From: a virus
Length of the DNA: 33,972 nucleotides
IMG/VR virus record: IMGVR_UViG_3300050144_000055
Strand: one strand, 5' to 3'
In this document: positions 6,260 through 31,274 of the stretch, piece by piece
How positions within the stretch are numbered: position 1 is the stretch's first letter
How the letters are laid out: each line of letters opens with the position of its first letter
Translations under genes and position numbers: made by a program
Notes under the pieces: generated by a model
Told to the model about the DNA's origin: nothing
The model's input: only the letters and a program-made list of their open reading frames with translations
Database searches by the model: none

Positions 6260-6267
6260 TTTAAGGC

Positions 6268-13094: not shown

Positions 13095-13186
13095 GGATGC
13101 GAGGTCGCAAGGTGTGGCAGGCGGCTCTAACCCGCACGGGGCGTCGGTAAAGCGCCCGCGGGGTTCGATTCCCCGAGCATCCGCCA
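13095..13186 (+). tRNA. Amber-suppressor tRNA, anticodon CUA (13127-13129), type II with long variable arm; Ser-like identity features
   Basis: The cloverleaf accounts for all 92 nt. Acceptor GGATGCG/AGCATCC (six pairs plus G7-A66). D stem GTCG/TGGC with loop CAAGGTG. Anticodon stem GGCGG/CCGCA with loop C-T-CTA-A-C. 22-nt variable arm (stem GGGCG/CGCCC). T arm CGGGG-TTCGATT-CCCCG. Discriminator G, encoded CCA. Confidence 0.85.
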
Positions 13187-13300
13187 AGATTGGAGGCTGC
13201 CATGGCCGACATGTAGGCAAGGTGGCGCGCATGGGTCGCGCTGGTGACGTGGTAGACGCGGCTGGCGGCGCTTTCCGCATGAGGTCCGAGGGGTTGTGAG

Positions 13301-14958: not shown

Positions 14959-14960
14959 CC

Positions 14961-15344
14961 ATGGAAATCGGGTATCGCCACCACGGCGACGCGCAGGCGC
15001 GCATCCGGCTGTGTCCGGGGCTCGGCGCGAAGCTGCAGGCCAGCACGCGGGAGCTGTGCGACCTGCAGGTACGCGAGGAGCGGCAGGGGCAGGGCCACGC
15101 CTCGGCGCTGCTGCGCGAGGTCTGTGATGAGGCGGACGCGGCCGGCGTGATGCTGGTCCTGTTCGTCGAGCCGTTCGACGCCGGCTTGTCGGCTGACAGC
15201 CTCGTGGCGTGGTACGGGCGGCACGGGTTCGCCGAGATCCAGGCCGAACCCGTGAAAATGATGGCCCGCCAGATCGGGGCGACCCCTCGCATCCTCAGCG
15301 GCAAGCGTGTACCATCCGCGCAACCCTTGGAGCACAGCCAGTGA
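14961..15344 (+). CDS. Small GNAT-family N-acetyltransferase
   Basis: 127 aa. The acetyl-CoA motif A-like segment is LQVREERQGQGHASALLREV. The C-terminus (LVAWYGRHGFAEI) is typical of GNATs. The TGA overlaps the portal GTG (GTGA). Confidence 0.65.
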   Translation: MEIGYRHHGDAQARIRLCPGLGAKLQASTRELCDLQVREERQGQGHASALLREVCDEADAAGVMLVLFVEPFDAGLSADSLVAWYGRHGFAEIQAEPVKMMARQIGATPRILSGKRVPSAQPLEHSQ

Positions 15345-17494
15345 CCGACGACAAGCCAGCACCGCGCAGCGATGACGACGCCTTGCTGGCCGAGGTGCGC
15401 GAGCGGCTGCAGATGTGCATCACGGCCGACGGCGACAACCACGACGCCGGGCTCGATGACCTGCGATTCCTGTCCGGTGAGCAGTGGGATCCGAAGGCCA
15501 AGGCGATGCGCGACCGCGAGGCCCGCCCGTGCTTGACGATCAACCGTCTCCCGAGCTTCCTGCACCAGGTCACCAACGACCTGCGCCAGAACCGGCCGTA
15601 GATCAAGGTCCACCCCGTTGACGACGGTGCCGACCCCGAGACGGCCGAGGTGATGCAAGGCCTGATCCGGCACATCGAGTACAGCAGCAACGCGGACGTG
15701 GCCTATGACACCGCCGTGTCGAGTGCCGCGGCGGTGGGCTTCGGGTACTTTCGCCTCGTCACCGAGTACGACGGCGACGGCTTCGACCAGTGCATCCGGT
15801 TCCGGCGGATCCGCAACCCGTTCACCGTCCACCTGGACCCGGCCAGCGAAGAGCCGGACGGGGCGGACGCACGGTTCTGCGTCATCAGCACCAAGATGCC
15901 GCGGGACGAGTTCAAGCGCCTGTACCCGGACGCCGAGGCCAGCACCGAGACGCTCGGCTGCCGCGAGGGCATGAATCAGTGGCTGTGGGGCGACTTCGTG
16001 CGCGTGGCCGAGTATTACCGCGTCGAGCACGTCAAAGGCACGCTGGTGCAGCTCACGAACGGCGAAACCGGGTGGAGGGACAAGCTCCTGGAACTGCCTG
16101 CGGGGGTGTAGATCGCCCGCGAGCGGCCCGCCCACCGCAAAGAAGTCTGGTGGTACAAGGTCACCGGCTGCGACGTGCTGGAGCGCGCGCAGATCCCGTG
16201 TGACTGGATCCCAGTGTTCCCCGTCTGGGGCGACGAACTGGACATCGACGGGCGCGTGATCCGCTCGGGCCTGGTGCGCAACGCCAAAGACCCGGCGCGC
16301 ATGTACAACTACTGGATGACCAGCGCCACCGAAGAGGTGAGCATGCGCCCGAAAACGCCATTCATCGGCGCAGAAGGCCAGTTCGACGGGCATGAGGCCA
16401 AGTGGGCACAGGCCAACACGCGCACGTTCGCCTACCTCGAATACAACCCGGTTGCGGCCAACGGCATGGTGGCGCCGCCCCCGCAGCGGCAAGCAATGTC
16501 TGACGTGCCGGTGGGCGTGCTGCAGATGGCCCGCCACGCCAGTGACGACATCAAGGCGACAACGGGCATCTTCGACGCATCGCTCGGCTCCCAGGGCAAC
16601 GAGAGGAGCGGCCGGGCGATCCTGGCGCGGCAGAAGGAAGGCGACACCGCCAACTTCCACTTTTCGGACAACCTGGCCCGCACGCTGCGCCACGCGGGCC
16701 GCTGCCTGGTGAACATGATCCCCCGCATCTACGACGCCCAGCGCGTCGTGCGCGTCATGGGGCAGGACGAGCAGATCAAGAGCGTCACGATCAACGGCCC
16801 AGCGCCGGCCGGCGATGACGACCAGGCCGCCAAGACCGCGCTGCACGACCTGACGGTCGGGAAGTACGACATCACCGTGAGCGCGGGGCCGAGCTACTCG
16901 ACGCTCCGGCAGGAGGCCGCCGAGGCGATGATCCAGTTCGGCCAGTCGTGGCCGAAGCTGATGGACGTGGCCGGCGACAAGGTCGTGAAGGCGATGGACT
17001 GGCCGGGCGCCGACGACATCGCCGAGCGCATCGCCCGCACGATCCCGCCCGAGATCCGCGGCGACGAAGACGAGCAGCAGCATGGCGTGGTGATGACGCC
17101 GCAAGGGCCGATCCCGCCCGAGCAGGCCGCGCAGGTCATGGGCCAGATGAAGCAGGCCATCGACCAGATGCAGGCCGAACTGCAGGAGGCAAAAGCCGGC
17201 CTCGACCGCGAGCGCATCAAGGCGCAAAGCGCCGAAGAGGTCGCCCGCATCCGTGCCGACGCCCTGCGCGACGTGGAAGAGCTGCGCGGCGCTGTCGAGA
17301 TGCTCAAGGCGCAGATGCAGCCCCCGCCCGCGCTGGCCGCCGCCGCCATGACCGGCCTGCACAACGACACGCCGGGCGATCACGCCGGCAACACCGAACC
17401 ACGCCCCGCGCCCAGCCCGAGCGCGGACCAGGCGCAAGAGGGCACGCAGTACGCCGAACCGGGCGGTGATCCCGGGCTGGAATCGTTGGGGTAA
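15341..17494 (+). CDS. Portal protein, read through two in-frame TAG codons (15599-15601, 16109-16111)
   Basis: Three same-frame ORFs (15209.., 15650.., 16175..) join into one 717-codon portal. Sequence continuity holds across both TAGs (LRQNRP-TAG-IKVHPVDDGADPETAEV; LELPAGV-TAG-IARERPAHRKEVWWYKV). No start codon or RBS follows either TAG. Confidence 0.85.
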
Positions 17495-17497
17495 CCA

Positions 17498-18325
17498 ATG
17501 CTGGAAGATCAGATCGACACGACCACCGAAGCGCCGGGCATCCCGGCCGACACGACCGCGCCCGCTGATGCGTAGGTCGAAACTTCGGACGGTCAGACAC
17601 AGGAGCAGTCCGAGCAGCAACAGCGAGACGAGAAGGGGCGCTTTCGCGGCGTTCAGGCTCGGATCGATGAGCTGACCCGGGCGCGCCACGAAGCCGAGCG
17701 CGAAGCCGCGTTTTGGCGTGGCCGCGCGGGTGGACAGGACGGGCAGGCGCAACCCTCGGCCACTCCGGCCGCACCCGCCAAGCCGACGCCCGACCAGTTC
17801 CAGGACTACGGCGAGTACATCGAGGCGCTGACCGACTGGAAGACCGAGCAGAAGGTGAACCAGTCACTGAGCGCCCGGGAAGCCGAGCGCGAAGCCGCGC
17901 AGAAGCAGCAGACCGTGGCGAAGACGTGGGAGGAGCGGCAGGCTGCCGCCCGCTCGACGCTGCCGGACTACGACCAAGTGCTCGGCGGCGCTGACGTGCA
18001 AGTCGTCCGCCACGTCGCCGAGGTGCTGCTCGAAAGCGACCAAGGTCCCGCGCTGGCGTACCACCTCGCCAAGCACCCGGAGATCGTGCAGCGCCTGAAC
18101 GGGCTGCCCCCCATCGCTGCGGCGCGCGAAATCGGGCGCCTCGAAGCCGGGATTTCTGCTCAGGCCCCCGCCGCCGCTCCTGTGGCCGCAAAACTCAGCA
18201 ACGCGCCGACGCCGGCAGGCCACCTCAAGGCCACCGCGCCGGCAACCCAGCGGGACCCCTCGAAGATGAGCATGGACGAATACAAAGCCATGCGATCCAA
18301 GCAGGGCGCCCGCTGGGCCAACTGA
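17498..18325 (+). CDS. Scaffolding protein (by position), read through in-frame TAG at 17573-17575
   Basis: ATG 17498 lies just after the portal TAA. The frame is open to 18325 apart from TAG at codon 26. Otherwise 360 nt of coding-like sequence would be unassigned. Charged, helical, Q/E/A-rich composition. Confidence 0.65.
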
Positions 18326-18345
18326 CCAACACCTGAAAGCCCGAT

Positions 18346-19557
18346 ATGGCAAATTCGCTCGTTACATGCTCCATCGTCGCCAAGGAAGCCTTGGCGATCC
18401 TCGAAAACATGCTGTCGTTCTCCAGCGCGGTGAACCGCGACTGGGAGGACGAGTTCACGGGCTAGATGTCCCGTGGTTACGCGCCCGGCACGACGATCAA
18501 CATCAAGCGTCCGCCGCGCTACACCTACCGCGCGGGCCGGGTTGCGGCGCCCCAGGGCACCGTCGAGACGACGACCCCGCTGACCCTGTCGCAGGGCGGC
18601 GCCGACCTGAACTTCTACGGCATCGACCGCACGCTGTCGCTGACCAAGCTGGAGAAGAAGCTTCAGGCCGCGATGGCGACGGTGGCGAACGAAATCGACC
18701 GGCAGGGCCTCGACCTGGCGCGCACGTCGGTCTACAACGCCATTGGCACGCCGGGCACCCTGCCGACCACGCAGGCCCTCGCCATGGCCGCAATCACGGG
18801 CGTGAACCAGCGTCTGGACGAAATGGCCGCACCGCGCGACAAGCAGCGCGCTCTGATCATGAACCCCGCCCTGAACGGCGCGATCGTGCAGGGCTTCGCT
18901 GGCATGTTCAACGGCGCCGAAAAGCTCTCCAAGCAGTTCGGCAGCGGCGTGGTGGTCGATTCGCTGGGTCTGACCTACGCGATGGACCAGAACGTGGCCA
19001 CGCACACCAACGGCACTCAGGCCGTGGCCGGCGTCAACGTCAGCGGCGCCAACCAGACCGGATCGGCCATCACCACGGTGGCGACAACCGGCACCATCAC
19101 GCGCGGCACCGTGATCACGTTCCCGGGCGTGTTCTCGGTCAACCCGCAGAGCCGCCAGTCCACGGGCCAGCTCGCGCAGTTCGTGGTCACTGCAGACCTG
19201 GCGACCGGCGTCACCTCGATCCCGATCAGCCCGGCCATCGTGACCAGCGGCGCGTTCCAGAACGTCACCGCCAGTCCGACCAACGGGGCCCCGTTCGCCG
19301 TCTTCGGCACGGCGTCCGGCTCCTACGCCTGCAACATCGGCTTCCACACCGACGCCTTCACGTTGGCGACGGTGCCGATGTACGCGCCCGCGGGCGGGAA
19401 GGGTGTGATCGATGTCGCTACCGAGTCGTACAAGGGCCTGAACCTCAAGGTGACCGAGTTCTATGACGGCATGAACGACAACTACATCATGCGCCTGGAC
19501 GTGCTGTTCGGCTGGGCGGCCACCTACCCGGAACTCGCCACCAAGTACGCCGCCTGA
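18346..19557 (+). CDS. Major capsid (coat) protein, P22-coat-family-like, read through in-frame TAG at 18463-18465
   Basis: MANSLVTCSIVAKEALAILENMLSFSSAVNRDWEDEFTG-TAG-MSRGYAPGTTINIKRPPRY. The N-terminal 39 codons carry the conserved coat N-arm pattern (EAL..L.N.L.....VNR....F) and are in frame with the 363-aa ORF. Confidence 0.8.
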
Positions 19558-19567
19558 GGAGCCTGAT

Positions 19568-19957
19568 ATGACCGTTCAACTCACCCGCCCCTACGCCGGC
19601 TATCCGGCGGGCCAGATCGTCGAACTCGCAACTGCGGTGGAGTCCGCGCTGGTCGCGCAGGGCCTCGCCACCACGTCGGCCGCCGTGCCGACCAGCGGCG
19701 CGTACAGCACCACGGCGTTCCAGGGCGTCGCAGTGGTGCCGGCCGCCGCGTCCAGCGTCGTCATCAGCAACCCGAGCTTCGACCCCGGTCAGAAGTTCTT
19801 CGCGGTGATCGCGCAGGCCACGGCTGACGCCACGGCGCTGTATGTGGCCCGCATCGTCGTGGCGGCCGGCACGCTGACCATCTACCTCAACGCCGCGGCC
19901 ACCGCTGCGACGGTGGTGGATTGGTCGATCCTGACGCCGTTCGGCACCACGATGTGA
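19568..19957 (+). CDS. Hypothetical virion protein (129 aa)
   Basis: Follows the coat gene. A/T/S/V-rich beta-type composition. Confidence 0.55.
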   Translation: MTVQLTRPYAGYPAGQIVELATAVESALVAQGLATTSAAVPTSGAYSTTAFQGVAVVPAAASSVVISNPSFDPGQKFFAVIAQATADATALYVARIVVAAGTLTIYLNAAATAATVVDWSILTPFGTTM

Positions 19958-19996
19958 TGGGGAGGGCCGGGATCCCGGCCCCGACAGGAGAGCGCA

Positions 19997-20626
19997 ATGC
20001 CTTTTTTGCAACAGGGCCAATCGGCTCAGGTCTCCGTACCAGGGGGGCAATACCTGCGGGTCACGGCCATCCGCGGCGCTCAGGCGTCCGTGTCTGCACC
20101 GCTCGGGAGGCCGGGCGGGCCGCTGCTGACCGTGGCGGATGGGGAGGTTGTCCTCCCGATGCCGGCGGGGGCGGCCACGCTGATCAACGTCAGTGCCGCC
20201 GTCGGGGAGGTCGAGTACGTCGTCAACGGGGCGGCCACGGATCAGCGGTACAACCCGGGCGCGGTTGCTGTCTCGGGCGGGACCATCAACGCCGCCACGG
20301 TGGGCGCCACCACGCCCAGCACCGGCAATTTCACGAGCTTGAGGCACACCAGCCTCGCGTCCGCGCTCACGGACGGCTCCGGCACGCCCGGCAACGTCAC
20401 GCAGAACGTAGCGCATGGGCGCGCAGCTTTCCCCGCTGCGGCGGCCAGCGTGGTCGTCACGAACTCCCTGGTCGCCGCGAATTCCTCCGTCTTCGTGCAG
20501 CTCGGCGGCACCGATGCGACGCTCACGTGCGTCAGGGTGACGACCGCTGCAGGGTCTTTCACGGTCACTGGTGATGCCGCAGCCACCGGCATCGTTCCCT
20601 TCAGCTACCTGGTCCTGAACAACTGA
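19997..20626 (+). CDS. Hypothetical virion protein (209 aa)
   Basis: CAGGAGAG RBS; TGATG overlap with the next gene. Confidence 0.55.
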   Translation: MPFLQQGQSAQVSVPGGQYLRVTAIRGAQASVSAPLGRPGGPLLTVADGEVVLPMPAGAATLINVSAAVGEVEYVVNGAATDQRYNPGAVAVSGGTINAATVGATTPSTGNFTSLRHTSLASALTDGSGTPGNVTQNVAHGRAAFPAAAASVVVTNSLVAANSSVFVQLGGTDATLTCVRVTTAAGSFTVTGDAAATGIVPFSYLVLNN

Positions 20627-21318
20627 TGAGCGCCGCCATCGACCTCATCACCGACGCTGCCGGACTGGCGGGTATCCTCGGCGTCGGCGAGACGATGACC
20701 GCCGACGAGGCGGCCGACTCGCTGCGCCTGCTGAATGACGTGCTGGACCTGTGGAGCGCGGGCGACCTCTGGAACACCGCCAACACCACGCTGCAGGCGG
20801 CCGCAGGGCAGGCGGTCTACACCATCGGCTCCGGCGGCCAGTGGGACACGGTGCGCCCCGTGCGCATCGCGGGCGCGTACTGCACGTACAGCGGCGTGGA
20901 CTTCCCGATCCGGTTGATCGACCAGGCCGAGTACAACGGGATCAGCATCAAGGCGCAGCGTCAGCCGATTGTCGAGCGCCTGCTCTACGTCAACGAGGTG
21001 CCGCTGGGGCTGGTGACGCTGTGGCCCGTGCCCGCGGAGAACATCAGCATCACGCTCAGCATCGAGAACGTCGCGGACGCCGTGGCCGGCCTCACCGCGA
21101 ACATCAGCCTGCCGCCCGGCGCTGGGCTGGCGATCAAGGGCGAACTGGCCGCACTGATGGCCGTGAAGTACGGCCGCGACCTGCCGCCCCAGGTGGCGGC
21201 CCTCGGCGCCAAGGCCAAGGCGGACTACCGCCGGGCGAACAACCCGCTACCGCCGTCGATGGGCTTTGACCCCGCGCTGGCGTCTCCGGGTGCGCCGCTG
21301 TGGCAGCGGGGATGGTGA
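20626..21318 (+). CDS. Putative head-to-tail adaptor (P22 gp4-like position)
   Basis: 230 aa. The N-terminus (ADEAADSLRLLNDVLDLWS) resembles podovirus adaptor proteins. Lies upstream of the gp10-like gene. Confidence 0.45.
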   Translation: MSAAIDLITDAAGLAGILGVGETMTADEAADSLRLLNDVLDLWSAGDLWNTANTTLQAAAGQAVYTIGSGGQWDTVRPVRIAGAYCTYSGVDFPIRLIDQAEYNGISIKAQRQPIVERLLYVNEVPLGLVTLWPVPAENISITLSIENVADAVAGLTANISLPPGAGLAIKGELAALMAVKYGRDLPPQVAALGAKAKADYRRANNPLPPSMGFDPALASPGAPLWQRGW

Positions 21319-21319
21319 C

Positions 21320-22750
21320 GTGAGCGCCTTCCCCTTCATCGGCGGCAGCTACGAGGCGCGCGGGCGCAGCTTCGACGCTCAGCGGGCGGTCAATCTCTAC
21401 GTCGAGATGAGCGGCAGCGGCACCAGCCGCGCGCCCTCCGCGATCTACGGCACGCCGGGCCTGACGCGGTGGGCCACGCTGTCAGGGGGCGCCGTGCGGG
21501 GCTTGCTGCGTGTCTCGCCGGCCCTGGCGCTCGCCGTGGCGGGGCCGAACGTCTACCGGCTCGACGCGCAGGGAGCCGCCGTGCTGGTCGGGGCACTCAC
21601 GTCCAACGCAGGCCCCGTCAGCATGGCCGGCAACGGCGCCCAGGTGATGCTGGTCACCGGGGAGGCGGGCTACGTATTCGACATCGCCGCCGGCACGCTG
21701 GCCCAGATCACCGACCCGGACTTCTCCGGTGCGGATGTGGTCCAGTTCATCGACGGGTACTTCGTCGTCAACAAGCCCGGCACCGGGCAGTTCCAGATCA
21801 GCAGCCTGTACGGGACCGACTTCGACGCGCTCGACTTCGCGACCGCAGAGGGGGCGCCCGACCTGCTGGTGTCGCTGATCGTCGACCACCGCGAACTGTG
21901 GCTGTTCGGGCAGACCTCAACCGAAGTGTTCTTCAACTCCGGCAGCGCGGATTTCCCGTTCGAGCGAATCCAGGGCGCGTTCATCGAGCACGGATGCACC
22001 GCGCCACAGTCCGTCGCCAAGCTGGACAACTCCGTATTCTGGCTGTCGGCCGACGACAAGGGGCAGGGGGTTGTGATGCGCGCCACCGGCTACCAGCCGC
22101 AGCGGGTGAGCACTCACGCTGTCGAGTTCGCGCTCGGGGGGTACTCCACCCTGTCGGATGCCGTCGCGTGGACCTACCAGCAGGAGGGGCACGCCTTCTA
22201 CGTGCTCAGCTTCCCGGCCGCCGGCAAGACGTGGTGCTTCGACGCATCCACCGGCCTGTGGCACGAGCGCGCCTGGCGCAACCCTGCCACGGGGGGGCTA
22301 GGCCGGCACCGCGGGGGCTGTCATGCAGCGTTTGCGGGCCGGAACATCGTCGGCGACTGGGAGACGGGCAACCTCTACGCCCTCGACCTGGACGCCTACA
22401 CCGACGACGGCGCCGCACTGCCGCGGATCCGGCGATGCCCGCATTTGGCGCACCCTGACGCGCTGTGGCAGTTCTTTCACAGGCTGCAGCTCGTCATGGA
22501 CACCGGCGTGGGCACGCCGAGCGGGCAGGGTGCCGCCCCGGTGGCGCTGTTGCGCTGGTCTGACGACGGCGGGGCGTCGTGGAGCAACGAGATTGCCGCC
22601 AATGTCGGCCGCATCGGCGAGCGCCGGACGCGCGTCCTGTGGCGCCGGCTCGGCAAGAGTCGGGACCGTGTGTTCGAAGTCACCATCACCGACCCGGTGC
22701 GGGTGGCGATCACCGCGGCGTCGGTCGACGTCTCAATCGGAGGCGCGTGA
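21320..22750 (+). CDS. P22 gp10-like tail hub / packaged-DNA stabilization protein
   Basis: 476 aa from GTG 21320. The opening FPFIGGSYEARGRSFDAQRAVNLYVE and beta-propeller-like repeats are as in gp10-type proteins. Confidence 0.5.
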   Translation: MSAFPFIGGSYEARGRSFDAQRAVNLYVEMSGSGTSRAPSAIYGTPGLTRWATLSGGAVRGLLRVSPALALAVAGPNVYRLDAQGAAVLVGALTSNAGPVSMAGNGAQVMLVTGEAGYVFDIAAGTLAQITDPDFSGADVVQFIDGYFVVNKPGTGQFQISSLYGTDFDALDFATAEGAPDLLVSLIVDHRELWLFGQTSTEVFFNSGSADFPFERIQGAFIEHGCTAPQSVAKLDNSVFWLSADDKGQGVVMRATGYQPQRVSTHAVEFALGGYSTLSDAVAWTYQQEGHAFYVLSFPAAGKTWCFDASTGLWHERAWRNPATGGLGRHRGGCHAAFAGRNIVGDWETGNLYALDLDAYTDDGAALPRIRRCPHLAHPDALWQFFHRLQLVMDTGVGTPSGQGAAPVALLRWSDDGGASWSNEIAANVGRIGERRTRVLWRRLGKSRDRVFEVTITDPVRVAITAASVDVSIGGA

Positions 22751-23091
22751 TGCCTCAGGCCCTGTACTTTGTCCCTCCGCGAGGCCCTTTTGTGGACCCA
22801 GCCACGGGCGCCCTGACGCGCACCGCTGACATGTTCCTGCGGGGGTTGTATGCTCGGGTCGGCGGGTCCACTGGCGACAGCACCGCGGACCTTTCGGCCT
22901 CTGCTTTCGACGATGCTGGGACGGAAGAGCAAGAGGCGGCGCTGTACGCGCTGGCCGACGCCCAGGGGCAGCGCCCGCCGCCGCCGGTGGGGCAAGAGGC
23001 GGACGACCTGGCCGCCGAGGTGGCGCACCTGCGCGAAGAGCTTGCCGTACTGCGGCAGCAGATCAACGACATCAAGCAAGGACAGGTATGA
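22750..23091 (+). CDS. Small coiled-coil virion-module protein (113 aa)
   Basis: TGATG and ATGA overlaps. C-terminal heptad segment (LAAEVAHLREELAVLRQQINDIKQ). Confidence 0.55.
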   Translation: MPQALYFVPPRGPFVDPATGALTRTADMFLRGLYARVGGSTGDSTADLSASAFDDAGTEEQEAALYALADAQGQRPPPPVGQEADDLAAEVAHLREELAVLRQQINDIKQGQV

Positions 23092-23426
23092 CCGTCACCG
23101 CGAAGCCGATCATCAGCGCAAAGCAGGCAGAAAGCGCGCAGACCACGCAGTACACCGTGCCTGCCGGCGTGCGTGCGATCATCGACAAGTTCACTGCGAC
23201 CAACACCAGCGGCGCAACCTCGTCGCTGTAGGTCAACCTGATCCCCGGCGGCGGGTCGCCCGGCGATGCAAACCTGATCGCCAAGACCAAGGCGCTGGCG
23301 CCGGGCGAGTGCTACACGTTCCCCGAGATCGTCGGTCAGGTGCTGGGGCCGGGTGACGCGATCAGCACGCTGGCGAGTGCGACAGCGTAGATCACCATCC
23401 GTGCCAGCGGGCGCGAGGTGACGTGA
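23088..23426 (+). CDS. Small virion-module protein (112 aa) read through two in-frame TAGs (23229-23231, 23388-23390)
   Basis: The frame is open from ATG 23088 to TGA 23426 except for the two TAGs (…GATSSL-TAG-VNLIPGGGSPGD…LASATA-TAG-ITIRASGREVT). Both ends are coupled to neighbours. No ORF of 60 aa or more is called here under the standard code. Confidence 0.65.
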
Positions 23427-23887
23427 TGGGTCTAACTCCCGAGTCCGCAACCGTTGCGCTTGCCGGGATGCCGTCGTCCGACAGCGTGCGCGAACTGGAG
23501 CGGCACCTGCTGCAGCTACCCCAGATCGACCTCGGCACGCAGATGCTGGTGCATGGCGGTGTCTGCACGCGCGCAATCCTGATTCCGGCCGGGTGCTGCC
23601 TGACCGGAGCGCTCACCAACTTGCCGAACACATGCATCGTGCTGGGCGACATCACGGTGACCACCGAGCACGGTGTCCGGCGCATCACCGGCTTCGAGGT
23701 CCTGCCGGCCGCGCCGGGCGCCAAGCGCGCGGGCATCGCGCACGCCGACACCTGGTGGGTGACATGCCACCACACCGATCTGACCGATGTGGCCGAGATC
23801 GAAGACGAGATGACGCCCGAGCCCGAGATGCTGCAGACGCGGCGGCAGGCGCTCGGCAACAACGCGCCCCCGGCGCTGGAGGGTTGA
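23426..23887 (+). CDS. Hypothetical virion-module protein (153 aa)
   Basis: TGATG overlap upstream; continuous ORF. Confidence 0.55.
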   Translation: MGLTPESATVALAGMPSSDSVRELERHLLQLPQIDLGTQMLVHGGVCTRAILIPAGCCLTGALTNLPNTCIVLGDITVTTEHGVRRITGFEVLPAAPGAKRAGIAHADTWWVTCHHTDLTDVAEIEDEMTPEPEMLQTRRQALGNNAPPALEG

Positions 23888-23889
23888 AC

Positions 23890-24591
23890 ATGGCATGGGC
23901 AGCAGTTGCAGGCGCAGCGATTGGAGTGGTCGGCGGGGCGGTAGCGAGCCGGTAGGCGGCGAACGCGCAGACCGACGCGGCCAACCAGGCGAACGCCACG
24001 CAGCTCGCACAGTACGAGCAGAACCGCGCCGACGCCGAGCCCTGGCGGCAGGCGGGCATGACGGCGTTGGGCCAGCTCGGCACCGGCACGGCGGCCGGCG
24101 GCGAGTTCAACCGCAACTTCGGCATGGCCGACTTCCAGGCCGACCCGGGCTACCAGTTCCGCCAGCAGCAGGGCCAGCAGGCTCTGGAGCGCAGCGCGGC
24201 GGCGCGCGGCGGGCTGCTGAACGGCGGCACGCTCAAGGCGTTGACGCGGTACGGGCAAGACACCGCGAGCGCCGAGTACGGCAACGCCTACAACCGGTTC
24301 AACAACGACCAGTCCACCCGGTTCAACCGGTTGTCGTCGCTCGCTGGCATCGGCCAGACCGCAAGCCGCGACGTGGCGCAGATGGGCATGCAGACGGCCG
24401 GCGCGGTGGCGGGCAACCAGCTCTCCGCAGGCAACGCCCGCGCGTCGGGCTACGTCGGCATGGCGAACGCATTGAACAGCGGCATCGGGCAGGGCCAGTC
24501 GATGTACTACCTGAACCAGCTCAATCGGCCGAGCGGCGGCGCGTCCGGCCAGTCGAACGCCGACATCTGGACCCAGATCAACGGGGGCTGA
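23890..24591 (+). CDS. Putative internal/ejection protein with N-terminal TM helix, read through TAG at 23953-23955
   Basis: MAWAAVAGAAIGVVGGAVASR-TAG-AANAQTDAANQANATQLAQYEQNRADAEPWRQAG... is in frame with ORF 24058..24591. The ATG lies 3 nt after the upstream stop. Confidence 0.6.
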
Positions 24592-24592
24592 C

Positions 24593-26017
24593 ATGGGGCT
24601 TGATTCGAACATCGCACTCCAGGTGCGCGCGCCTGCCGACCCGATGGAAGCCTACGGCCGCGCCATCAGCCTGAAGAGCCTGATGGGGCAGCAGTCCATG
24701 CAGGACATGCAGCTTGAGCAGGCCCGCCAGCAGCAGGAACAGGAGCGCACCCTGGCCGACTTGTACCGCGGCAACATCGGCGCCGACGGGCAGGTGAACC
24801 GGCAGGGCGTCACCAGCGCCATGGCGCAGCGCGGGCTGGGCGGGCGCATCCCCGGTGTGCAGAAGCAATGGGCCGAGGCCGACAAGGCCGGCGCCGAGCT
24901 GGGGCAGGTGAAGGCCAAGACCGCCGTGGACGAGATCAAGGCCGAGCACGAAAAGGCCGCGTACGTCGGCGACACGATGGCGCGGCTGGCATCGAACCCG
25001 AACATCACCCACGACGACGTGATCCGCGAGCTGGCGAACGTCCCTCCGCAGTTCGCCGACAACGCCGCGCGCCTGGTGCGCTCGCTGCCCGGCGACCCCT
25101 GGCAGTTGCGGCAGTACCTGCTGACCATCGGGCTCGAAGCGGACAAGCGCCTGGCGGCGATCACGCCGCAGTTCCAGAAGCTCGACGCGGGGAACCGGTT
25201 GATCCTCGGCACAACGGACCCGATGACCGGCGCGTTCACTGCTCAGGGGGGCCCGGTGGTCAAGGCCCCCGAGGGCTACATCGTCGGGCCGGATGGCCGG
25301 CTGTCCGTCGATCCTGGGTTCCAGGCGTCGAAAGAGAAGATTGCCTCGGCCGGGAAAAGCCAGATCAACCTGGCTGTCAACACCGAAAAGAGCCTCACCA
25401 ACGAGATGGCGCAGGGCCTCGGCAGGCAGCTCGATTCGAGCCTCGCCGACGCGACCGCGGCCGGCTCGCAGATCACGAACGCCCGCAACCTGCGGCAGCT
25501 ACTCGATAGCGGCAAGGTGATCACCGGGCCCGGCGCGGACGCGCGCATCCTGGCAACACAGATCGGGTCCGCCCTCGGCGTCACCGGCAAGGACGCGGAG
25601 GAGCGCCTGGCGAACACGCGCGCTGCGATCCAGGGGCTGGCGCAGGCTGAACTCACCGCCGCCGCCGGCATGAAGGGGCAGGGGGCCATCACCGACAGTG
25701 AGCGAGCCATGCTGAAGAAAGCCGCCGCAGGCGACATCAGCATGAGCCAGTCCGAACTCCGCGCCATGTCGGCCGCCATCGAGCGCAACGCGAACGCCCG
25801 TATCCAGCTGCACCAGCAGCAGGTGCAGCGACTGGGCGCGCTGCCTGGCGCCGCGCCGCTGATGCCGTTCTACGCGGCGCCCCAGGCGCCCGGAGAGTCG
25901 CAGCCAGCACCCGCCCAGCCGGCACCCCCGGCGCGCGGCGGCACGCAACCAGCCCGCACGCAGCAGCCCGCCGCGCGGCCCCCGCAGCAGCGCGCACCCT
26001 CCGTCAGCAACTGGTGA
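24593..26017 (+). CDS. Putative internal virion / ejection protein (474 aa)
   Basis: Position and Q/A-rich helical composition resemble podovirus ejection proteins. Continuous ORF. Confidence 0.5.
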   Translation: MGLDSNIALQVRAPADPMEAYGRAISLKSLMGQQSMQDMQLEQARQQQEQERTLADLYRGNIGADGQVNRQGVTSAMAQRGLGGRIPGVQKQWAEADKAGAELGQVKAKTAVDEIKAEHEKAAYVGDTMARLASNPNITHDDVIRELANVPPQFADNAARLVRSLPGDPWQLRQYLLTIGLEADKRLAAITPQFQKLDAGNRLILGTTDPMTGAFTAQGGPVVKAPEGYIVGPDGRLSVDPGFQASKEKIASAGKSQINLAVNTEKSLTNEMAQGLGRQLDSSLADATAAGSQITNARNLRQLLDSGKVITGPGADARILATQIGSALGVTGKDAEERLANTRAAIQGLAQAELTAAAGMKGQGAITDSERAMLKKAAAGDISMSQSELRAMSAAIERNANARIQLHQQQVQRLGALPGAAPLMPFYAAPQAPGESQPAPAQPAPPARGGTQPARTQQPAARPPQQRAPSVSNW

Positions 26018-26021
26018 CACC

Positions 26022-28391
26022 ATGCCTCGAAACATCACAGTCACGTTCGACGACGGCACCCAGCACACCTACGCCAACGCCCCCGACAGCGTCACGCCCG
26101 ACCAGATCACGGCCCGCGCCTGGCAAGACCACGGCAAGGTGGTCACGCATCTCGACGGCGGGCGCAAGTCGGGGCCGGACGCATAGGCGCGTGTCGGCAC
26201 GGAGAAGGGCCGCGCCAGCAGCTACGGCACGCCCCCCGAGGCTGCGCCAGCGCCTGCCGAACCCAAGCCCCGCAGCCTCGGCGACGACCTGATCCGGCAA
26301 GGCGGCCTGACCGCCCGCTACGCCATGGAGGGCGCCCCGCAGGTGCTCGACCTCATCACCGCGCCCGTCCGGATTGGCCTCAACGCCGTCAATGGCGCCA
26401 TGGGCGGTAACCCTGAGCACTTCCAGCCGCTGTCCGACCTCGGCCGGCGCGGCGCCGACAGGCTTGGCCTGCCGCAGCCCGAGAACGCCGCCGAGCGCGT
26501 TATCGGCGATGCTTCCCGTGCCGTTGCCGGCTCCGGGGGCTCGGTCGGCCTGGCGCGCGCTGTGGCCGCTCGGGCGGGCACTCCGGCGGTGAAGGCCGTC
26601 GCGCAGAAGATGGCCGCTGACCCAGCAGCGCAAGGCGTCTCCGGCGCCACTGGCGCAGCAGCGGGCAGCGCGACCCGCGAAGAGGGCGGCACGCCGATGG
26701 GCCAGTTCGTCGCCTCGCTCGTTGGCGGGCTGACCGGTGGCGCGGCGCTCAACGCCGGCCGGTCGGCGACCAACGCGGCCGGCGCCGCGGCCCGCAAGGC
26801 GTTGAACCCGCGGCAGCTCGACGCCACGCTGAAGACGACGTTGGAGCGGGCCGGCGTGAGCTGGGACGACCTCGGCGCTGCGGCCAAGATCCGGCTCCGC
26901 AAGGACGCCGAGAACGCGGTGTACAGCGGCCAGCCCATCGACGCCGCGGCGCTGAAGCGCCTGGCCGACTTCCGCGCGGTCGGCGCCACGCCGCTGCTGG
27001 GCGACATCACCCAGGATCCAGGCCTGTTGACGATGCAGCGCAACCTCGCCAAGACGCAGGCCAATGGTGCGGGCGACCTGCCGGGCCTGCAGAACGCGAA
27101 CGCGGGCCGGGTGCTCGACACGCTGCAGCGGCAGGCTGACTCTCCCCTCGACGCCTACGCCACCGGCGAGCGGATCATCAGCACCGTGCAGGGCAAGGAC
27201 GCCGCGCTGAAGGCGGGGGAAAAGGCGCTGTACGACCGCGCCCGCGGCGCCGCAGGCCGAGAGGTGCAGCTCGACCGCGGCCAGTTCGTGAACGAGGCGT
27301 TTTCCAACCTGGCGGCCACCAACAGGCAGGCGTTCCTGCCGGAGTCGGTGGGCAAGGTGCTTGACCAGATCGCCGCAGGCACCGTCAAGGTCGGGGGGCA
27401 GGAGCACCCGGTGCCGTTCGACGTGAACACCATCGACCAGCTCAAGACGATCCTGGCAAGTGCCAGCCGGGCGACGATGGACGGGAACGCCAAGGCGGCA
27501 ATCAAGGCCGTGCGCGACGCGCTCGAAAACGCCCAGATCGCCACGGCGCGCCAGCCAGCCACCCCGGGCGGCCTCGCTACCTGGGCGCAGGCGGCGGCCA
27601 TGCGGCAGGCCGACACGGCGCCCGCCGAGGCACTGGCGTGGTTCGACAAGGCCCGCGGCGCGGCGCGCGACCGGCGCACCTGGCAGGAGAGCGCGAAGTT
27701 CATCGAGGCGGCGCTCGACGGCGCGGCGCCTGACGACTTCGTGCGCAAGCACATCATCAGCGCACCGGTCGGCGAGCTGCAGAAGCTCAAATCCGAGATC
27801 TCCCGCGCAGCCGCGCCCGCCGCTTCGTCGTCGCGCGAGTTGTCCACCGCCGTCAACCCGGGCGGCCTCACGGCGCCGAACACCGGTGGCGCACAACAGG
27901 GCGAGATCATCAACGCCGTCCGGAAGCAGATGATCGACTACATCCTGAAGCGCGGCCGAGCGGACAGTGACGTGCGCAACTTCAGCAGCGCGGGCATGAA
28001 GGACGCCCTGCAGCAGCTCGGTGACCGCAAGCTGGCGATGTTCTTCAGCCCGGACGAGACCCAGCAGATCAAGAGCGCGGTCAACGTCGGGCGCTACATG
28101 CAGTCCCAGCCCATCGGCTCGGCGGTCAACAACAGCAACTCGGGCGCGATGCTGTGGGGGCGCCTTTCCAGTCTGCTGGGGCACGCCTCCGGGATTCCTG
28201 GCGTCGGGCCCCTCGCCGCGGCCCCGCTGCAGCAGTTCACGACCACCCTGCAAGCCCGCGGCCTGCGCGATTTATCCCGTGGGCTCGCCCAACCAGCCCC
28301 CCAGGTTGGCGCCGTAAGCTCCGCTGCGGTGCCTCTGTCGCTATTATTCGCGCAGCCAGCCCAGGGCCGCGGGGACCAGCAGCGCCGCTAA
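26022..28391 (+). CDS. Large internal virion / ejection protein (789 aa) read through TAG at 26184-26186
   Basis: ATG 26022 lies 4 nt after the upstream stop. TAG at codon 55 is followed by 138 nt of in-frame coding-like sequence, with no start codon or SD before ATG 26325. Confidence 0.55.
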
Positions 28392-28437
28392 GCGACCCAA
28401 CAGATCACCTTCCATACCCGCACCCCAGGAACCCAAG

Positions 28438-30183
28438 ATGGCATCCATCCTCACTGAAGGCCGGCAGGCGTTCACCGATTAGGTCGGCGCCCCGCTGGTC
28501 GGCGGCAAGCTCTACACCTACGACGCCGGCACCAGCACGCCGCGCCCGACCTACGCCGACGCGGCCGGCACGGTGCCGAACACAAACCCGGTGGTGCTGG
28601 ACGCCCGCGGCGAAGCGGCGGTGTTCTGGTCCGGCGCGTACAAAGTGGTGCTCAAGACGGCGACCGATGCCACGGTCTGGACCGTGGACGGAGTGCAATC
28701 CACGGACGCGCAGGGCGCCGGGCAGTTTGCGGCGGATGCGCTGCGCACCGACTTGGCCAGCACTGCGGCCGGCAAGGGCGCCGCACTGGTGGGCCAAACA
28801 GACGGGGCGGCCTACCCTGCGGGGACGGTCGGCTGGTACATCAACAAGATCAAGCCGGTCGTGACCAACGGCGTGGACGACTACAGCCGGATCATGACCG
28901 AGCTGGCGAACACGGACGTGTGCTGGATCGATGGCGATCTGACCACCAGCCAGACCATCGTTGTGCCCGAATACAAGGGGATCTACGGCACGCACCGAGA
29001 CGGCACGACCCTGACCTACACCGGGGCCGGGGCTTGTGGGATCTACTGCGGTCAGGCCGGCTACGCGGTCCCATTGCGTGGATACGAGCTACGGGACTTT
29101 ACGCTCGCGGTGACGAACAAAAGCGTCGTGATCGACGGCATCGTGATGGAAAACGCCATCCATTTTCAGGTGCGCGACATCACGATCACCGGCCCGAAAA
29201 ACCCGAACTTGGTGGAGCCGCTGACCGGATCGGGCCTGCACATCAAGAACGGCTCGTTCATCGGCCGTGTGTCGCGCGTTGATTCGCGCCTTTGGGAGTA
29301 TGGGGTACATACTCAGACAATGATCACCGGGCAGGATTCATGGACCGCTGCCCTGGTGTTTGATGGCCAGGGCGAACTGATCAACAACCGCATCGGCATG
29401 ATGCTTGGGGACGATTCGGTCGCGCTCTATGATTTCAACGGGTGCACCGTTCGCGATTACACCGTCGAGGGCAACTACGAAGGCGGTATCCAAGTGGTCA
29501 GCGCGGTCTCTGCCACGCTGGACAACATCTACTGCGAGCATAACGGGTACTGGGATATCCGGCTGGGCAGCGACGGGATTGCTCCTGGCCCGATCAAAAC
29601 CCGGATCAACAACTGCAAGGCCGACTCCAACGACACGCAGTCCACGCCATACGGATCGCGCACGTATTTGTCGAAGCTGTGGATCCAGAAGGCGTCGTTT
29701 GCGAGCGCACGCGACAACGACTTCGCGGCAGGCTCGATCCCGTGCATCCGGATCGATCCCGGCAGTGACCGCGCCTACCTGGACAACAACCGGGTCAACA
29801 CGGCAAGCGCCATCAAGATTCTCGACAACGGCGTCGGCACGATCATCGACAACACTCCCGGGGTGCTGCAGTCCGTTATTTCGGTGCCGACTCTGCTCAA
29901 TAGTTGGGCCAACCTCGGCTCCGGGTATGAGCAGGCGGGGATCACGTCGCAGCGCCAGGCCAATGGGGCGACCGAGATCATGCTGAATGGCATGATCAGC
30001 GGCGGGGCCGCGGGCAGCACCATATTCACGCTACCGGCCGGCCAGCGGCCATCCGCGCGGATTGATTTTGCCGTAGGAGGAGGCGCTGCCAACAACGTCG
30101 CAGTATTTAGCACGGGGGACGTGATATGCACAGTCAAGGGGTCGTCGTCAATTTCGCTGCGCGGCGTCCGGTTCTTGGTTTGA
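28438..30183 (+). CDS. Tailspike / tail fibre read through TAG at 28480-28482
   Basis: MASILTEGRQAFTD-TAG-VGAPLVGGKLYTYDAGTSTPRPTYADAAGTVPNTNPVVLDARGEAAVFWSGAYKVVLK is the widespread conserved phage tail-fibre N-terminal motif, and the TAG falls inside it. The C-terminal two thirds have beta-helix-like repeats and lower GC. Confidence 0.8.
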
Positions 30184-30959: not shown

Positions 30960-31274
30960 ATGAACAGCACCGAACAAACCACCGAAGCGGCCATCGTCGC
31001 GGCAGGCGCCACAGCTCCGCGCATCACGCCGGCCGACATCGCTGCGAACATCACCCACACCGAGATCGTCAAGCACGTCACGCCGTCGGGCAAGGTGCTC
31101 CGCTGGGCGGTCCTCACGTGCCGCAATGGTTTCGCCGTCACCGGCAAGCCGTCCGCGTCCGTGTCGGTCGAAAACGACCGGGAGGAGATCGGCCGGCAGA
31201 TTGCCATCGACAACGCCCGTGACGAGATGTGGGCGCTCATGGGGTACGCTCTTCAGCAGCAGCTGCATGCCTGA
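30960..31274 (+). CDS. Gp49-like (N4 gp49 / Sf6 gp66 family) protein, paralogue 1
   Basis: 104 aa. RITPADIAANI...WAVLTCRNGFAVTGKPSASVSVENDREEIGRQIAIDNARDEMWALMGYAL matches the Phage_gp49_66 pattern. Confidence 0.7.
   Translation: MNSTEQTTEAAIVAAGATAPRITPADIAANITHTEIVKHVTPSGKVLRWAVLTCRNGFAVTGKPSASVSVENDREEIGRQIAIDNARDEMWALMGYALQQQLHA

Follow-up and report, generated by a model that had tools for sequence, protein, structure and literature searches.

In-frame TAG codons in the virion genes of a 68% GC P22-like podovirus and a phage-encoded Ser-type CUA tRNA likely to decode them

Results

Phage, host and late module

The window, i.e., the whole stretch of 33,972 nt that was analysed (IMG/VR record IMGVR_UViG_3300050144_000055), comprises most of the ~34-kb, 68% GC genome of a P22-like podovirus. 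The closest relative in culture is Rhodoferax phage P26218; the host is therefore probably a Burkholderiales betaproteobacterium with the standard genetic code. Of the lambda-type switch that an earlier note ascribed to the phage, only a Cro/YdaS-like HTH protein, encoded at 6268–6588, was recovered; the window annotations include neither an integrase nor a CI repressor, and lysis genes were not identified either. The late module is opened by the terminase genes, which are preceded at its left edge by a tRNA cassette and followed by the virion genes:

13081–13086 (+): -10-like hexamer TATCAT, candidate promoter element, 8 nt upstream of the tRNA
13095–13186 (+): amber-suppressor tRNA, 92 nt, CUA anticodon at 13127–13129; ARAGORN cloverleaf
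13192–13282 (+): RBS GGAGG (13192–13196) and 26-codon mini-ORF (13202–13282)
13301–13696 (+): terminase small subunit (TerS); PHROG/Pfam matches and gene call; TAG-free
13693–14958 (+): terminase large subunit (TerL); PHROG/Pfam matches and gene call; TAG-free
15341–17494 (+): portal, P22-like, 717 aa; TAG codons 87 (15599) and 257 (16109)
17498–18325 (+): scaffold protein, 275 aa; TAG codon 26 (17573)
18346–19557 (+): coat, P22-type, 403 aa; TAG codon 40 (18463)
23088–23426 (+): virion-module protein of unknown function, 112 aa; TAG codons 48 (23229) and 101 (23388)
23890–24591 (+): DNA-ejection protein (TM), 233 aa, phrog_598 match; TAG codon 22 (23953)
26022–28391 (+): ejection-type/internal virion protein, 789 aa; TAG codon 55 (26184)
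28438–30183 (+): tailspike, beta-helix (Pfam Beta_helix), 581 aa; TAG codon 15 (28480)

In-frame TAG codons

The nine in-frame TAG codons were found at the coordinates that an earlier note on this DNA had given; its numbering of codon 22 in the TM ejection-type gene is correct when counted from the ATG at 23890. Genes were re-called by codon usage with TAG as sense (stops TGA and TAA only), and the pieces fused into single genes; in-frame TAGs were confined to these seven genes, the ~36 others having none. All interruptions are TAG, no in-frame TGA or TAA being found inside any gene of the window, and two of the motifs cited earlier do run across a TAG, namely RQNRP-X-IKVHPVDD in the portal and FTD-X-VGAPLVGGKLYTY in the tailspike. 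Standard-code callers fragment the genes as had been foreseen; public calls for the same phage give the portal as 86 + 152 + 439 aa, the coat as 39 + 363 aa and the tailspike as 536 aa. The effect of recoding on coding density is 3.3%.

All nine TAGs lie in the virion block (4895 of 9965 codons; p ~0.002), and the early operons and terminase genes contain none. As a terminator TAG was observed in 0 of 43 complete genes, vs 65 of 580 calls in high-GC standard-code relatives (~11%; p ~0.006), where it is a minority stop because TGA dominates; in Rhodoferax phage P26218 it ends 8 of 44 genes. Purifying selection in the same frame was directly observed before and after every TAG (dN/dS ~0.0–0.24), and homologues aligned without a break across all nine. 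Details for the individual genes, with relatives designated by L numbers, are as follows.

Portal: PF16510 homologues (~700 aa) cover both TAG sites; 102 of the 117 homologues have Ser at column 87, and column 257 holds Thr, Ser or Ala; dN/dS 0.01–0.18 across the three segments.

Scaffold: alignment with relatives unbroken; codon 26 is TAG in L001 and CAG in L019–L022.

Coat: the entire length aligns at 79% identity with the uninterrupted coat of Rhodoferax phage P26218; at column 40, 20 of 30 distant relatives have Asn, and all four close relatives with coverage have TAG.

112-aa protein: homologues unbroken; both TAG columns are mostly Ser (TCG/AGC), codon 101 being TCG in L001 and L019; the differences in the 11 codons past the second TAG are all synonymous.

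TM ejection protein: distant relatives encode Ser (TCG) at codon 22, L001 has TCC and L019 AAG.

789-aa protein: codon 55 is GCC in L001 (homologue aligned over residues 1–786) and GCT in L019; dN/dS 0.10 before the TAG and 0.22 after it.

Tailspike: the TAG sits within the conserved head-binding motif; column 15 is Ser in 59 of 95 homologues and TAG in L001.

The TAGs could in principle be true stops, the genes being either naturally split or nonsense-mutated pseudogenes of a decaying prophage. The separate ORFs returned by standard gene callers and the ATG that follows the coat TAG agree with this. It can nevertheless hardly be maintained: the homologues are single proteins across every break, most downstream pieces have no nearby start or RBS, and conserved heads would be lost under the standard code (25 aa of the scaffold, 21 aa of the ejection protein, 14 aa of the tailspike). 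The dN/dS values are far below 1 on both sides, only TAG interrupts and does so alongside a CUA tRNA, and the population is abundant and recurrent.

Co-inheritance in relatives

The same tRNA and TAGs were directly observed together in at least four diverged lineages, among them the independent assemblies L001/L025, L019/L020 and L021/L022/L214, and the window's own population is represented by at least 23 contigs from many samples. The tRNA was found in every clade member covering this region and, at a mosaic junction, is in close linkage with the module that bears the TAGs; more distant relatives had neither the TAGs nor this tRNA. At four of the sites every relative with coverage has the TAG as well, and the other five are polymorphic among genomes 86–92% identical, the window having the most TAGs of the genomes compared. 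Chance is excluded by the clustering in the virion block, the selection on both sides and the recurrence of the same TAGs in independently assembled relatives.

Sequencing or assembly artefacts, or a laboratory amber-mutant phage, deserve practically no credence as the source of the TAGs. No supporting evidence was found, and against them stand identical TAGs and tRNA in those contigs (at least 23), which were built by different assemblers out of different JGI and SRA samples, as well as TAGs and tRNA in lineages 8–14% diverged at the nucleotide level, with lineage-specific gains and losses.

The claim of the earlier note that amber is a sense codon in the structural module is thus upheld by the unbroken homologues and by purifying selection before and after the TAGs, and it is further supported by the absence of TAG terminators and by the phage CUA tRNA, which that note did not mention.

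Amber-suppressor tRNA

The tRNA(CUA) is of type II, with a long variable arm (6-bp stem, 7-nt loop), discriminator G73, encoded CCA, acceptor pairs G1-C72, G2-C71 and A3-U70, and a canonical anticodon loop (CU-CUA-AC); variable-arm pair 46:62 is G-C, G-U or A-U depending on the lineage, i.e., a compensatory change. The acceptor/T arrangement is 7/5, with six Watson–Crick pairs and a G7-A66 mismatch; an allo-tRNA-like 8/4 reading requires tandem G-A/A-G pairs to be counted. Further oddities are A8 and a compact D-arm, and the scores remain below Rfam gathering thresholds. Efficient function of this tRNA is assumed because it is conserved; its core is atypical, and there are no expression or charging data.

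The best Rfam match was tRNA-Sec (RF01852; 37.2 bits, E = 6e-6); a selenocysteine tRNA was rejected, as the match falls short of the gathering score (47), the anticodon is CUA and not UCA, and the acceptor/T helix has 12 and not 13 bp. ARAGORN labels any CUA tRNA a pyrrolysine tRNA; this assignment was rejected as well, the variable arm being long and that of the Pyl type a short loop, and no pyrrolysine-pathway protein was present among the annotated proteins of the window.

Amino acid at UAG

From the long arm, G73 and the pairs G1-C72/G2-C71/A3-U70 serine identity is predicted for the tRNA; experiments in E. coli showed that G73 determines whether long-arm CUA tRNAs insert Ser (PMC5389517). 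Among the homologues Ser was observed as the majority residue at five of the nine TAG columns (p ~1.7e-4), viz. portal-87, p112-48, p112-101, TM-22 and tailspike-15, and TCG, one step from TAG, occurs at four sites. The remaining four columns have a non-Ser consensus: Asn (coat), Thr (portal-257), Ala and Glu/Ala. Judged from these columns and the tRNA, without peptide data, UAG is most likely read as serine.

The same suppressor mechanism with glutamine as the inserted residue, as in the 'code 15' phages, is improbable, although several points speak for it. Amber suppressors are often mischarged by GlnRS, and a CUA tRNA would present C34/U35 and G73 for recognition by glutaminyl-tRNA synthetase; TAG alternates with CAG within the clade at scaffold codon 26 and mini-ORF codon 5, and glutamine is the usual meaning of TAG in the recoded phages described. 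Against this, the variable arm of the tRNA is long and its acceptor pairs are G1-C72/A3-U70, vs U1-A72/G3-C70 of tRNA-Gln; Gln was found in 0 of 95 homologues at tailspike-15 and in 0 of 117 at portal-87 (3 of 28 in a separate locus census); Ser dominates five columns, and CAG → TAG is the easiest transition anyway. Assignment to genetic code 15 (TAG = Gln) failed on the Ser-majority columns, the near-absence of Gln and the non-Gln-type tRNA; a minor Gln component, compatible with the CAG/TAG alternation at the two polymorphic sites, is not excluded.

Cassette ahead of the terminase genes

The cassette consists, in this order, of the -10-like site, the tRNA(CUA), GGAGG and the TAG-containing mini-ORF, after which the terminase genes begin. 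TATCAT of the window aligns with TATAAT (L019, L214a), CATAAT (L214b) and TACCAT (L025), and full sigma-70-like sites with 10 of 12 positions matched are present in L019 and L214b; in the promoter scan of the window upstream region its own site failed and no clear promoter was found, so that the evidence for a promoter element is weak in the window. The mini-ORF product would be MADM-X-ARWRAWVALVTW-X-TRLAALSA, with two more in-frame TAGs at 13214 and 13253, and its stop lies 18 nt before the TerS ATG. The RBS, start and both TAGs are kept in L019, L025/L001 and L214a; in L214b, from a relative that has the whole cassette twice, the mini-ORF is duplicated along with the tRNA, its fifth codon is CAG, and its stop shares bases with the TerL ATG. 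The mini-ORF is absent from standard-code relatives. That it is coding is plausible; only 4–5 distinct sequences exist, and translation is unproven.

No terminator or switch-like RNA structure was found. A leader-peptide transcription attenuator was rejected (no terminator-like site, folding z-score -0.08, no covariation).

Discussion

Decoding of the in-frame TAGs of the virion genes by the phage-encoded Ser-type CUA tRNA is the reading favoured here with high confidence. The host seryl-tRNA synthetase would charge the tRNA, and UAG would be read as an amino acid, likely serine, in competition with release factor 1. The phage has purged TAG from all gene ends and has nine TAGs in seven virion genes and two in the leader ORF, so that full-length portal, scaffold, coat, ejection proteins and tailspike would be formed only when its tRNA outcompetes release factor 1. 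Serine charging, the timing of expression and the purpose are inferred, in the absence of peptide, tRNA expression or charging data.

Six of the nine TAGs lie within the first 12% of the gene (p ~2e-4); each of the nine is followed by a purine, and six by ATC or GTC (p ~5e-6). Amber suppression is favoured by a purine at +4 (PMC6266110). With TAGs mostly near starts and always before a purine, failed suppression is therefore cheap and suppression is favoured. The purpose is most likely gating or insulation of virion-protein synthesis; this is an inference, and the regulatory logic remains unproven because no clear promoter upstream and no terminator or switch-like RNA structure were found.

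It is also possible, if rather unlikely, that decoding takes place as described and the TAGs have no regulatory role. By such a neutral ratchet, or 'addiction' of the module, TAG would become a near-synonymous serine codon once the suppressor had been acquired and would drift in until the tRNA was indispensable. The five polymorphic sites among genomes 86–92% identical, the excess of TAGs in the window, the linkage of the tRNA to the TAG-bearing module at a mosaic junction and the one-step TCG → TAG paths are in accordance with it. It does not account for the lack of TAG in early genes or terminase (p ~0.002) nor for the N-terminal and 3' context biases (p ~2e-4 and ~5e-6), and two sites differ at all three codon positions (GCC vs TAG) in genes otherwise ~90% identical; the placement patterns could, however, stem from purifying selection on cost alone.

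A more far-reaching proposal, put forward only as a speculation that is more probably wrong than right, is that the ~240-nt unit formed by the promoter-like site, the Ser-type tRNA(CUA), GGAGG and the mini-ORF with its two TAGs is a self-contained, duplicable 'code-switch cassette' that both provides the suppressor and checks its function. If so, the end of the leader ORF would be reached, and the terminase/late operon coupled or kept open, only with UAG decoded; a second gate would come from nonsense polarity at the N-terminal TAGs of the virion genes. A high-GC temperate-type phage would then use a private code as a checkpoint, its virion module remaining silent or insulated during lysogeny, in a wrong host or once recombination has carried it into a cassette-less phage.

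Given the decoding itself, stop-codon recoding in phages extends beyond low-GC gut phages to an environmental podovirus of 68% GC that has converged on it, and the published idea of low GC as a necessary precursor state is weakened. With serine as the amino acid, as appears to be the case, tools and databases built on code 15 would give wrong sequences for these proteins. Recoding as sparse as this (9–11 codons, 3.3%) is invisible to screens for coding-density gain, and since public annotations are already fragmented, similar cases have probably been missed. The shared and polymorphic sites offer a rare view of codon capture under way, and the tRNA cassette, compact and of natural origin, could serve as an amber-suppression part in GC-rich Betaproteobacteria.

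Comparison with known systems

Code 15 phages: Like crAss-like phages and the Garnet/Topaz prophages (Borges et al., bioRxiv 10.1101/2021.08.26.457843; Peters et al., PMC9523058), the window phage has TAGs in conserved genes, a phage-encoded CUA tRNA with a host that is presumably standard-code, and early genes compatible with the standard code, the TAGs being concentrated in late/structural genes. The code 15 phages are low-GC gut phages, and low GC has been proposed in their literature as a precursor state of recoding; the window phage has 68% GC and comes from wastewater/freshwater-type samples. They insert Gln via short-arm tRNAs, whereas the long-arm G73 tRNA described here predicts Ser, with which the homologue columns agree; their recoding is dense, affects many genes and gives a large coding-density gain, vs 9–11 TAGs and 3.3%. 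The earlier note had regarded the arrangement as unfamiliar in a small, high-GC genome. Small size does not stand as a novelty, TAG-recoded Garnet/Topaz prophages of ~24 kb having already been described (Borges et al.); for high GC no precedent was found, and high GC, the Ser-type suppressor and sparse sites are new relative to the literature found. In-frame TAGs, a cognate tRNA, absence of TAG terminators and late/structural concentration, by which phage stop-codon recoding is recognised, are all present; the lysis genes, which give the strongest recoding signal in published recoded phages, are unidentified here.

Classical Ser amber suppressors: In E. coli supD (tRNA-Ser CGA → CUA) and phage T4 psu1+ tRNA-Ser, charging by SerRS is independent of the anticodon, Ser is inserted at UAG in competition with RF1, and efficiency depends on a purine at +4. 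The window phage likewise has a CUA-bearing Ser-type tRNA, predicted to read UAG, and the +4 purine context. The classical suppressors are laboratory-selected tRNA-Ser mutants, whereas the window tRNA is natural and conserved, has an atypical core and would have essential genes depending on it; derivation from a canonical tRNA-Ser was not detectable.

Leader-peptide control: By analogy, and for the mini-ORF only, trp-type leaders are resembled in the very short ORF just upstream of an operon and in the two copies of the limiting codon, and translational coupling in the ORF end that adjoins (window) or overlaps (L214b) the start of the next gene. Alternative terminator/antiterminator hairpins, which leader-peptide control would involve, were not found.

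Allo-tRNAs and phage (8/4) tRNA-Ser: The distant relative L104 has an 8/4-type tRNA-Ser(CGA) upstream of terminase; apart from the acceptor end, the window tRNA showed no sequence relationship to those of L104. The allo-tRNAs (Mukai et al., PMC5389517) share with the window tRNA the long arm, G73, a compact Sec-like D-arm and the tRNA-Sec Rfam match, and long-arm CUA tRNAs of that study insert Ser efficiently in E. coli; the 7/5 acceptor/T with its G-A mismatch differs from plain 8/4. That study connected no natural target TAGs with its suppressors, whereas in the window phage suppressor and target TAGs are linked.

In-frame TAG codons and the interrupted genes

All nine TAG codons that the earlier note had reported in the structural module were recovered in place, and each shares its frame with the coding sequence on either side. 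Genes were called again with a codon-usage scorer trained on the long genes of the window, only TGA and TAA being taken as stops; with TAG read as sense, the fragments of each set fused to one gene, and seven genes were obtained.

Genes joined by the TGA/TAA-only gene call
15341-17494, portal
17498-18325, scaffold
18346-19557, coat
23088-23426, 112-aa protein (p112)
23890-24591, DNA-ejection protein
26022-28391, 789-aa internal protein
28438-30183, tailspike

In-frame TAGs were confined to these 7 of about 45 genes in the window; the virion block comprises about half of the codons, yet 9/9 TAGs lie inside it (p about 0.002). No gene of the window is interrupted by TGA or TAA, in keeping with the claim that only TAG is affected, and the expected fragmentation by standard-code callers is met in the public calls on the same phage (portal 86 + 152 + 439 aa, coat 39 + 363 aa).

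Homologue alignments were continuous at all sites, as anticipated for single proteins: both portal TAGs were crossed without a break by 120 portal homologues of about 700 aa; the uninterrupted coat of Rhodoferax phage P26218 matched that of the window from end to end at 79% identity; the motif spanning the tailspike TAG was present in 95 tailspike homologues; tblastn against about 190 related loci gave unbroken alignments at every TAG site. The TAG-spanning stretches, with TAG written as S, are QNRP-S-IKVHPVDDGADPETAEVMQGLIR (portal) and QAFTD-S-VGAPLVGGK (tailspike). Comparison with two diverged relatives gave dN/dS of 0.0-0.24 at dS of 0.1-0.6 for each segment 5' and 3' of each TAG, down to the heads of only 14, 21 and 25 codons and, in the 112-aa gene, the tail of 11; translation thus proceeds in one frame on either side of each TAG. 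The 112-aa, 474-aa and 789-aa proteins could be assigned to no Pfam or PHROG family.

Recurrence in relatives

The phage of the window was found in many JGI and SRA samples (JGI 3300059585 and SRR35808903 among them), on 23 contigs or more, with an identical tRNA region and public calls fragmented alike. Three more lineages of 86-92% nucleotide identity (contigs L001/L025, L019/L020 and L021/L022/L214) were identified, and a tRNA with the anticodon CUA was present wherever the region was covered. Since the TAGs and the tRNA recur in these contigs and lineages, the TAGs cannot be put down to assembly error, to pseudogenes or to an engineered amber mutant. Four TAGs are common to all covering relatives and five are polymorphic.

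TAG sites (gene and codon number), state in the other lineages, and residue in homologues
portal-87: TAG; Ser, 102/117
tailspike-15: TAG (covered by L001 only); Ser, 59/95
p112-48: TAG; majority Ser
coat-40: TAG; majority Asn
portal-257: polymorphic, GCC; majority Thr
scaffold-26: polymorphic, CAG; majority Glu/Ala
p112-101: polymorphic, TCG; majority Ser
ejection protein-22: polymorphic, TCC or AAG; majority Ser
789-aa protein-55: polymorphic, GCC or GCT; majority Ala

At 16109 and 26184 the TAG of the window stands against GCC/GCT (L001/L021/L019), all three codon positions being changed in genes that are about 90% identical; change at these codons is faster than expected for a single codon. 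Relatives below about 80% protein identity, including phages with a similar TerS, had neither the TAGs nor the CUA tRNA. The phage is a P22-like podovirus of 68% GC with Rhodoferax phage P26218 and EBPR podovirus 1 as nearest relatives; the host was not identified by the searches (bacterial-genome scan; tailspike receptor-binding part, for which no named relatives were found).

Position, context and loss of TAG as terminator

The earlier note had not remarked on the placement of the TAGs within genes or on their 3' context. In six of nine cases the first 12% of the gene holds the TAG (p about 2e-4), so that failed suppression gives just a very short peptide. The base after TAG is A or G at 9/9 virion sites and at both TAGs of a 26-codon mini-ORF directly 3' of the CUA tRNA (p about 0.007 for eleven), and ATC or GTC follows directly in 6/9 (p about 5e-6). 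As far as the summary in PMC6266110 goes, efficient amber suppression classically goes with a purine at +4 (Bossi and Roth 1980, Bossi 1983).

The 43 complete genes of the window end with TGA (38) or TAA (5), none with TAG; in 38 high-GC standard-code relatives, TAG was found by the same caller at 65/580 gene ends, and Rhodoferax phage P26218 has it at 8/44 annotated gene ends. For 0/43 against the 11% background, p is about 0.006. TAG is no longer a stop in this phage and was removed from gene ends. An antisense ORF (5956-6471, minus strand) ending in TAG-N6-TAA was considered as a TAG-terminated gene; it gave no family hits, overlaps a Cro/YdaS-like gene of the switch region (6268-6588, plus strand) and is probably not a gene.

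Suppressor tRNA

ARAGORN placed a tRNA of 92 nt with the anticodon CUA at 13095-13186, flanked by the RusA gene on one side and the terminase genes on the other. Its anticodon loop (CU-CUA-AC) and T-loop are canonical, CCA is encoded, the variable arm is long (6-bp stem), the discriminator is G73, and the pairs G1-C72, G2-C71 and A3-U70 are present; its core is atypical (A8, G7-A66 mismatch, compact D-arm). No RNA family was found in the window with Rfam at gathering thresholds; under relaxed settings the best match of this tRNA was tRNA-Sec (37.2 bits, E = 6e-6, sub-threshold). Judged by sequence comparison, the CUA tRNA is a selected gene despite its atypical core, because the variable-arm pair 46:62 forms a compensatory series, namely G-C (window and L214b, the copy of relative L214 before TerL), G-U (L001, L025) and A-U (L019 and L214a, the copy before TerS), and, in genomes that differ by 8-14% elsewhere, nothing else varies but anticodon-loop position 37 (L019, L214a) and position 82 (L214a). 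With this tRNA, the continuous homologues, the dN/dS values and the absence of TAG terminators, the proposal that amber is a sense codon in the structural module is supported.

Other origins of the CUA tRNA were considered. A pyrrolysine tRNA was rejected (long variable arm; no pyrrolysine-pathway protein among the annotated window proteins), the name being merely ARAGORN's label for a CUA anticodon; a selenocysteine tRNA was rejected as well (acceptor/T helix of 12 bp, anticodon wrong for Sec, sub-threshold Rfam score), as was an attP-type tRNA fragment. Descent from the phage-borne tRNA-Ser(CGA) of relative L104 finds no support, similarity being limited to the acceptor end. Scanning of bacterial genomes with an anticodon-arm pattern gave one chance match (a Siphonobacter contig of 45% GC) and no prophage copy, host or parental tRNA; a pattern scan of metagenomes had no matches, and a terminase-based metagenome scan gave relatives at ≤58% identity only, all without the CUA tRNA.

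L104 (47% TerL identity, 60% GC) carries a tRNA-Ser(GCU) and an 8/4-type tRNA-Ser(CGA) just upstream of the terminase (179-265 and 273-359); Ser tRNAs that a single mutation would turn into amber suppressors are thus met at this position in the wider group of phages. Unrelated CUA tRNAs of 71-74 nt with the same anticodon stem-loop (L023 2704-2774, L033 1859-1932, L035 1365-1438) sit in tRNA arrays of phages of about 44% GC (contigs up to 133 kb). A second ARAGORN call in the window, a 72-nt tRNA-Gly(GCC) at 20132-20203, falls within gene 19997-20626, which is itself well supported, and Rfam does not back it; it is probably spurious and recurs in population contigs because that gene does.

Amino acid at TAG

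Seryl-tRNA synthetase ignores the anticodon and recognises its tRNAs by a long variable arm together with G73 (not the A73 of Leu/Tyr). Long-arm CUA tRNAs with G73 insert Ser in E. coli (Mukai et al., PMC5389517). Serine makes up 5.5% of the proteins in question, and 5/9 Ser-majority columns at the TAG sites have p about 1.7e-4; in the non-Ser columns the residues are small or polar, their replacement by Ser being a mild change, and TCG, one mutation off TAG, was found at 4 TAG sites. Glutamine is kept as a minor rival because CAG stands in place of TAG in part of the sequences at two polymorphic sites; it is, however, nearly absent from the homologue columns. Reading of UAG as Ser is an inference from tRNA identity rules and column statistics, without experimental data on charging and readthrough.

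tRNA cassette, mini-ORF and promoter-like sites

Homology between lineages starts about 10 nt upstream of the tRNA (junction about 13085), the early regions to the left being unrelated; the CUA tRNA hence bounds the TAG-bearing late module on its left. The mosaic breakpoint was seen in the window, L019, L025 and L214; L019, for example, has an extra 127-aa ORF. Directly after the tRNA follow a conserved GGAGG, ATG and the mini-ORF (13202-13282) with conserved in-frame TAGs at 13214 and 13253; in the window 18 nt separate its end from the TerS start. Only the clade with the tRNA has the mini-ORF; standard-code relatives lack an equivalent.

GGAGG and mini-ORF
window, 13192-13282
L019, 1445-1540
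L025, 839-930
L214, 178-270 and 847-925

L214 has the whole cassette (-10-like hexamer, tRNA, GGAGG, mini-ORF) twice, with the tRNA at 86-177 before TerS and at 755-846 precisely at the TerS/TerL junction; the mini-ORF of the second copy has CAG as codon 5, and its stop overlaps the TerL ATG. The two tRNAs match different lineage variants, which suggests a gain by recombination, not by recent tandem duplication.

L019 and L214b have sigma-70-like sites (10/12 positions) whose ends lie 9-13 nt ahead of the tRNA; the -10-like hexamer is kept in all five cassette versions, that of the window being weak, and no sigma-70 promoter of the window itself passed the scan, unlike those of the relatives. 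An RNA switch or strict attenuator was considered between tRNA and TerS and is unsupported, because no terminator-like site, no significant folding (z = -0.08) and no covariation were found in this interval.

Other features of the window and relatives

The large terminase of some relatives is a protein of 722-723 aa with an intein (Pfam Intein_splicing; L019 1951-4119, L213 728-2899); the TerL of the window (421 aa) has none. The precomputed annotations give a weak match to GNAT acetyltransferases (PF13508) for gene 14946-15344 (132 aa), which lies between TerL and portal; such a gene is unusual at that place of a P22-like head module. Downstream of the tailspike, paralogous genes of unknown function (phrog_322; 30960-31274 and 32368-32883) share N-terminal AIVAAGATAPRITPADIAANI and flank a Rha/anti-repressor-like gene (31816-32364). 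Gene 1-552 (minus strand) continues beyond the left end of the window. Nothing in the window was recognised as a CI repressor, an integrase or a lysis gene.

Proposed mechanism and purpose

The phage carries a conserved CUA tRNA, its essential virion genes hold TAGs that need readthrough, and TAG is gone from the gene ends. It is inferred that the host SerRS would charge the phage tRNA and that UAG would be read as Ser in competition with RF1; from its position as the first element of the late module, the tRNA may be transcribed from a promoter of its own or from the late promoter. Synthesis of virion proteins would then depend on the CUA tRNA, and N-terminal TAGs would expose unsuppressed late mRNA to nonsense polarity.

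That the TAGs arose by a neutral ratchet after acquisition of the tRNA is a serious alternative; the bias in TAG position, context and gene class argues against it and for selection, though what purpose the TAGs serve is not shown. Gating or insulation of the virion module may be envisaged and fits the model of Borges et al.

Comparison with known recoding

Recoding of stop codons by phage suppressor tRNAs is known from gut phages (TAG = Gln, TGA = Trp), where it concentrates in late and lysis genes and includes 24-kb prophages, and a low-GC precursor state was proposed (bioRxiv 10.1101/2021.08.26.457843; PMC9523058). The observation of the earlier note is confirmed and its sense reading supported; the phenomenon was already known in principle. 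As to the novelty suggested for a small, high-GC podovirus, small size is known from the 24-kb prophages (bioRxiv 10.1101/2021.08.26.457843); high GC, the Ser type and sparse sites had no precedent in the limited literature searched, no report of phage TAG-to-Ser recoding or of recoded high-GC phages having been found there.

The window resembles the recoded gut phages in that its in-frame stops match sense residues of homologues, a cognate tRNA is encoded, the codon no longer terminates genes, and the sites are biased to late genes. It differs in GC content (68%, against the proposed low-GC precursor state), in environment and phage type (P22-like, near P26218 and EBPR podovirus 1), in tRNA type and likely amino acid (Ser instead of Gln), and in the sparseness of its TAG sites. 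The standard code would cost just 372 aa, 3.3% of the window, far under the roughly 10% gain in coding density used for spotting recoding (PMC13037316). The example exposes a blind spot of current recoding screens, offers a compact tRNA-leader cassette with a testable function, contradicts the low-GC route and points to another amino acid and tRNA class.
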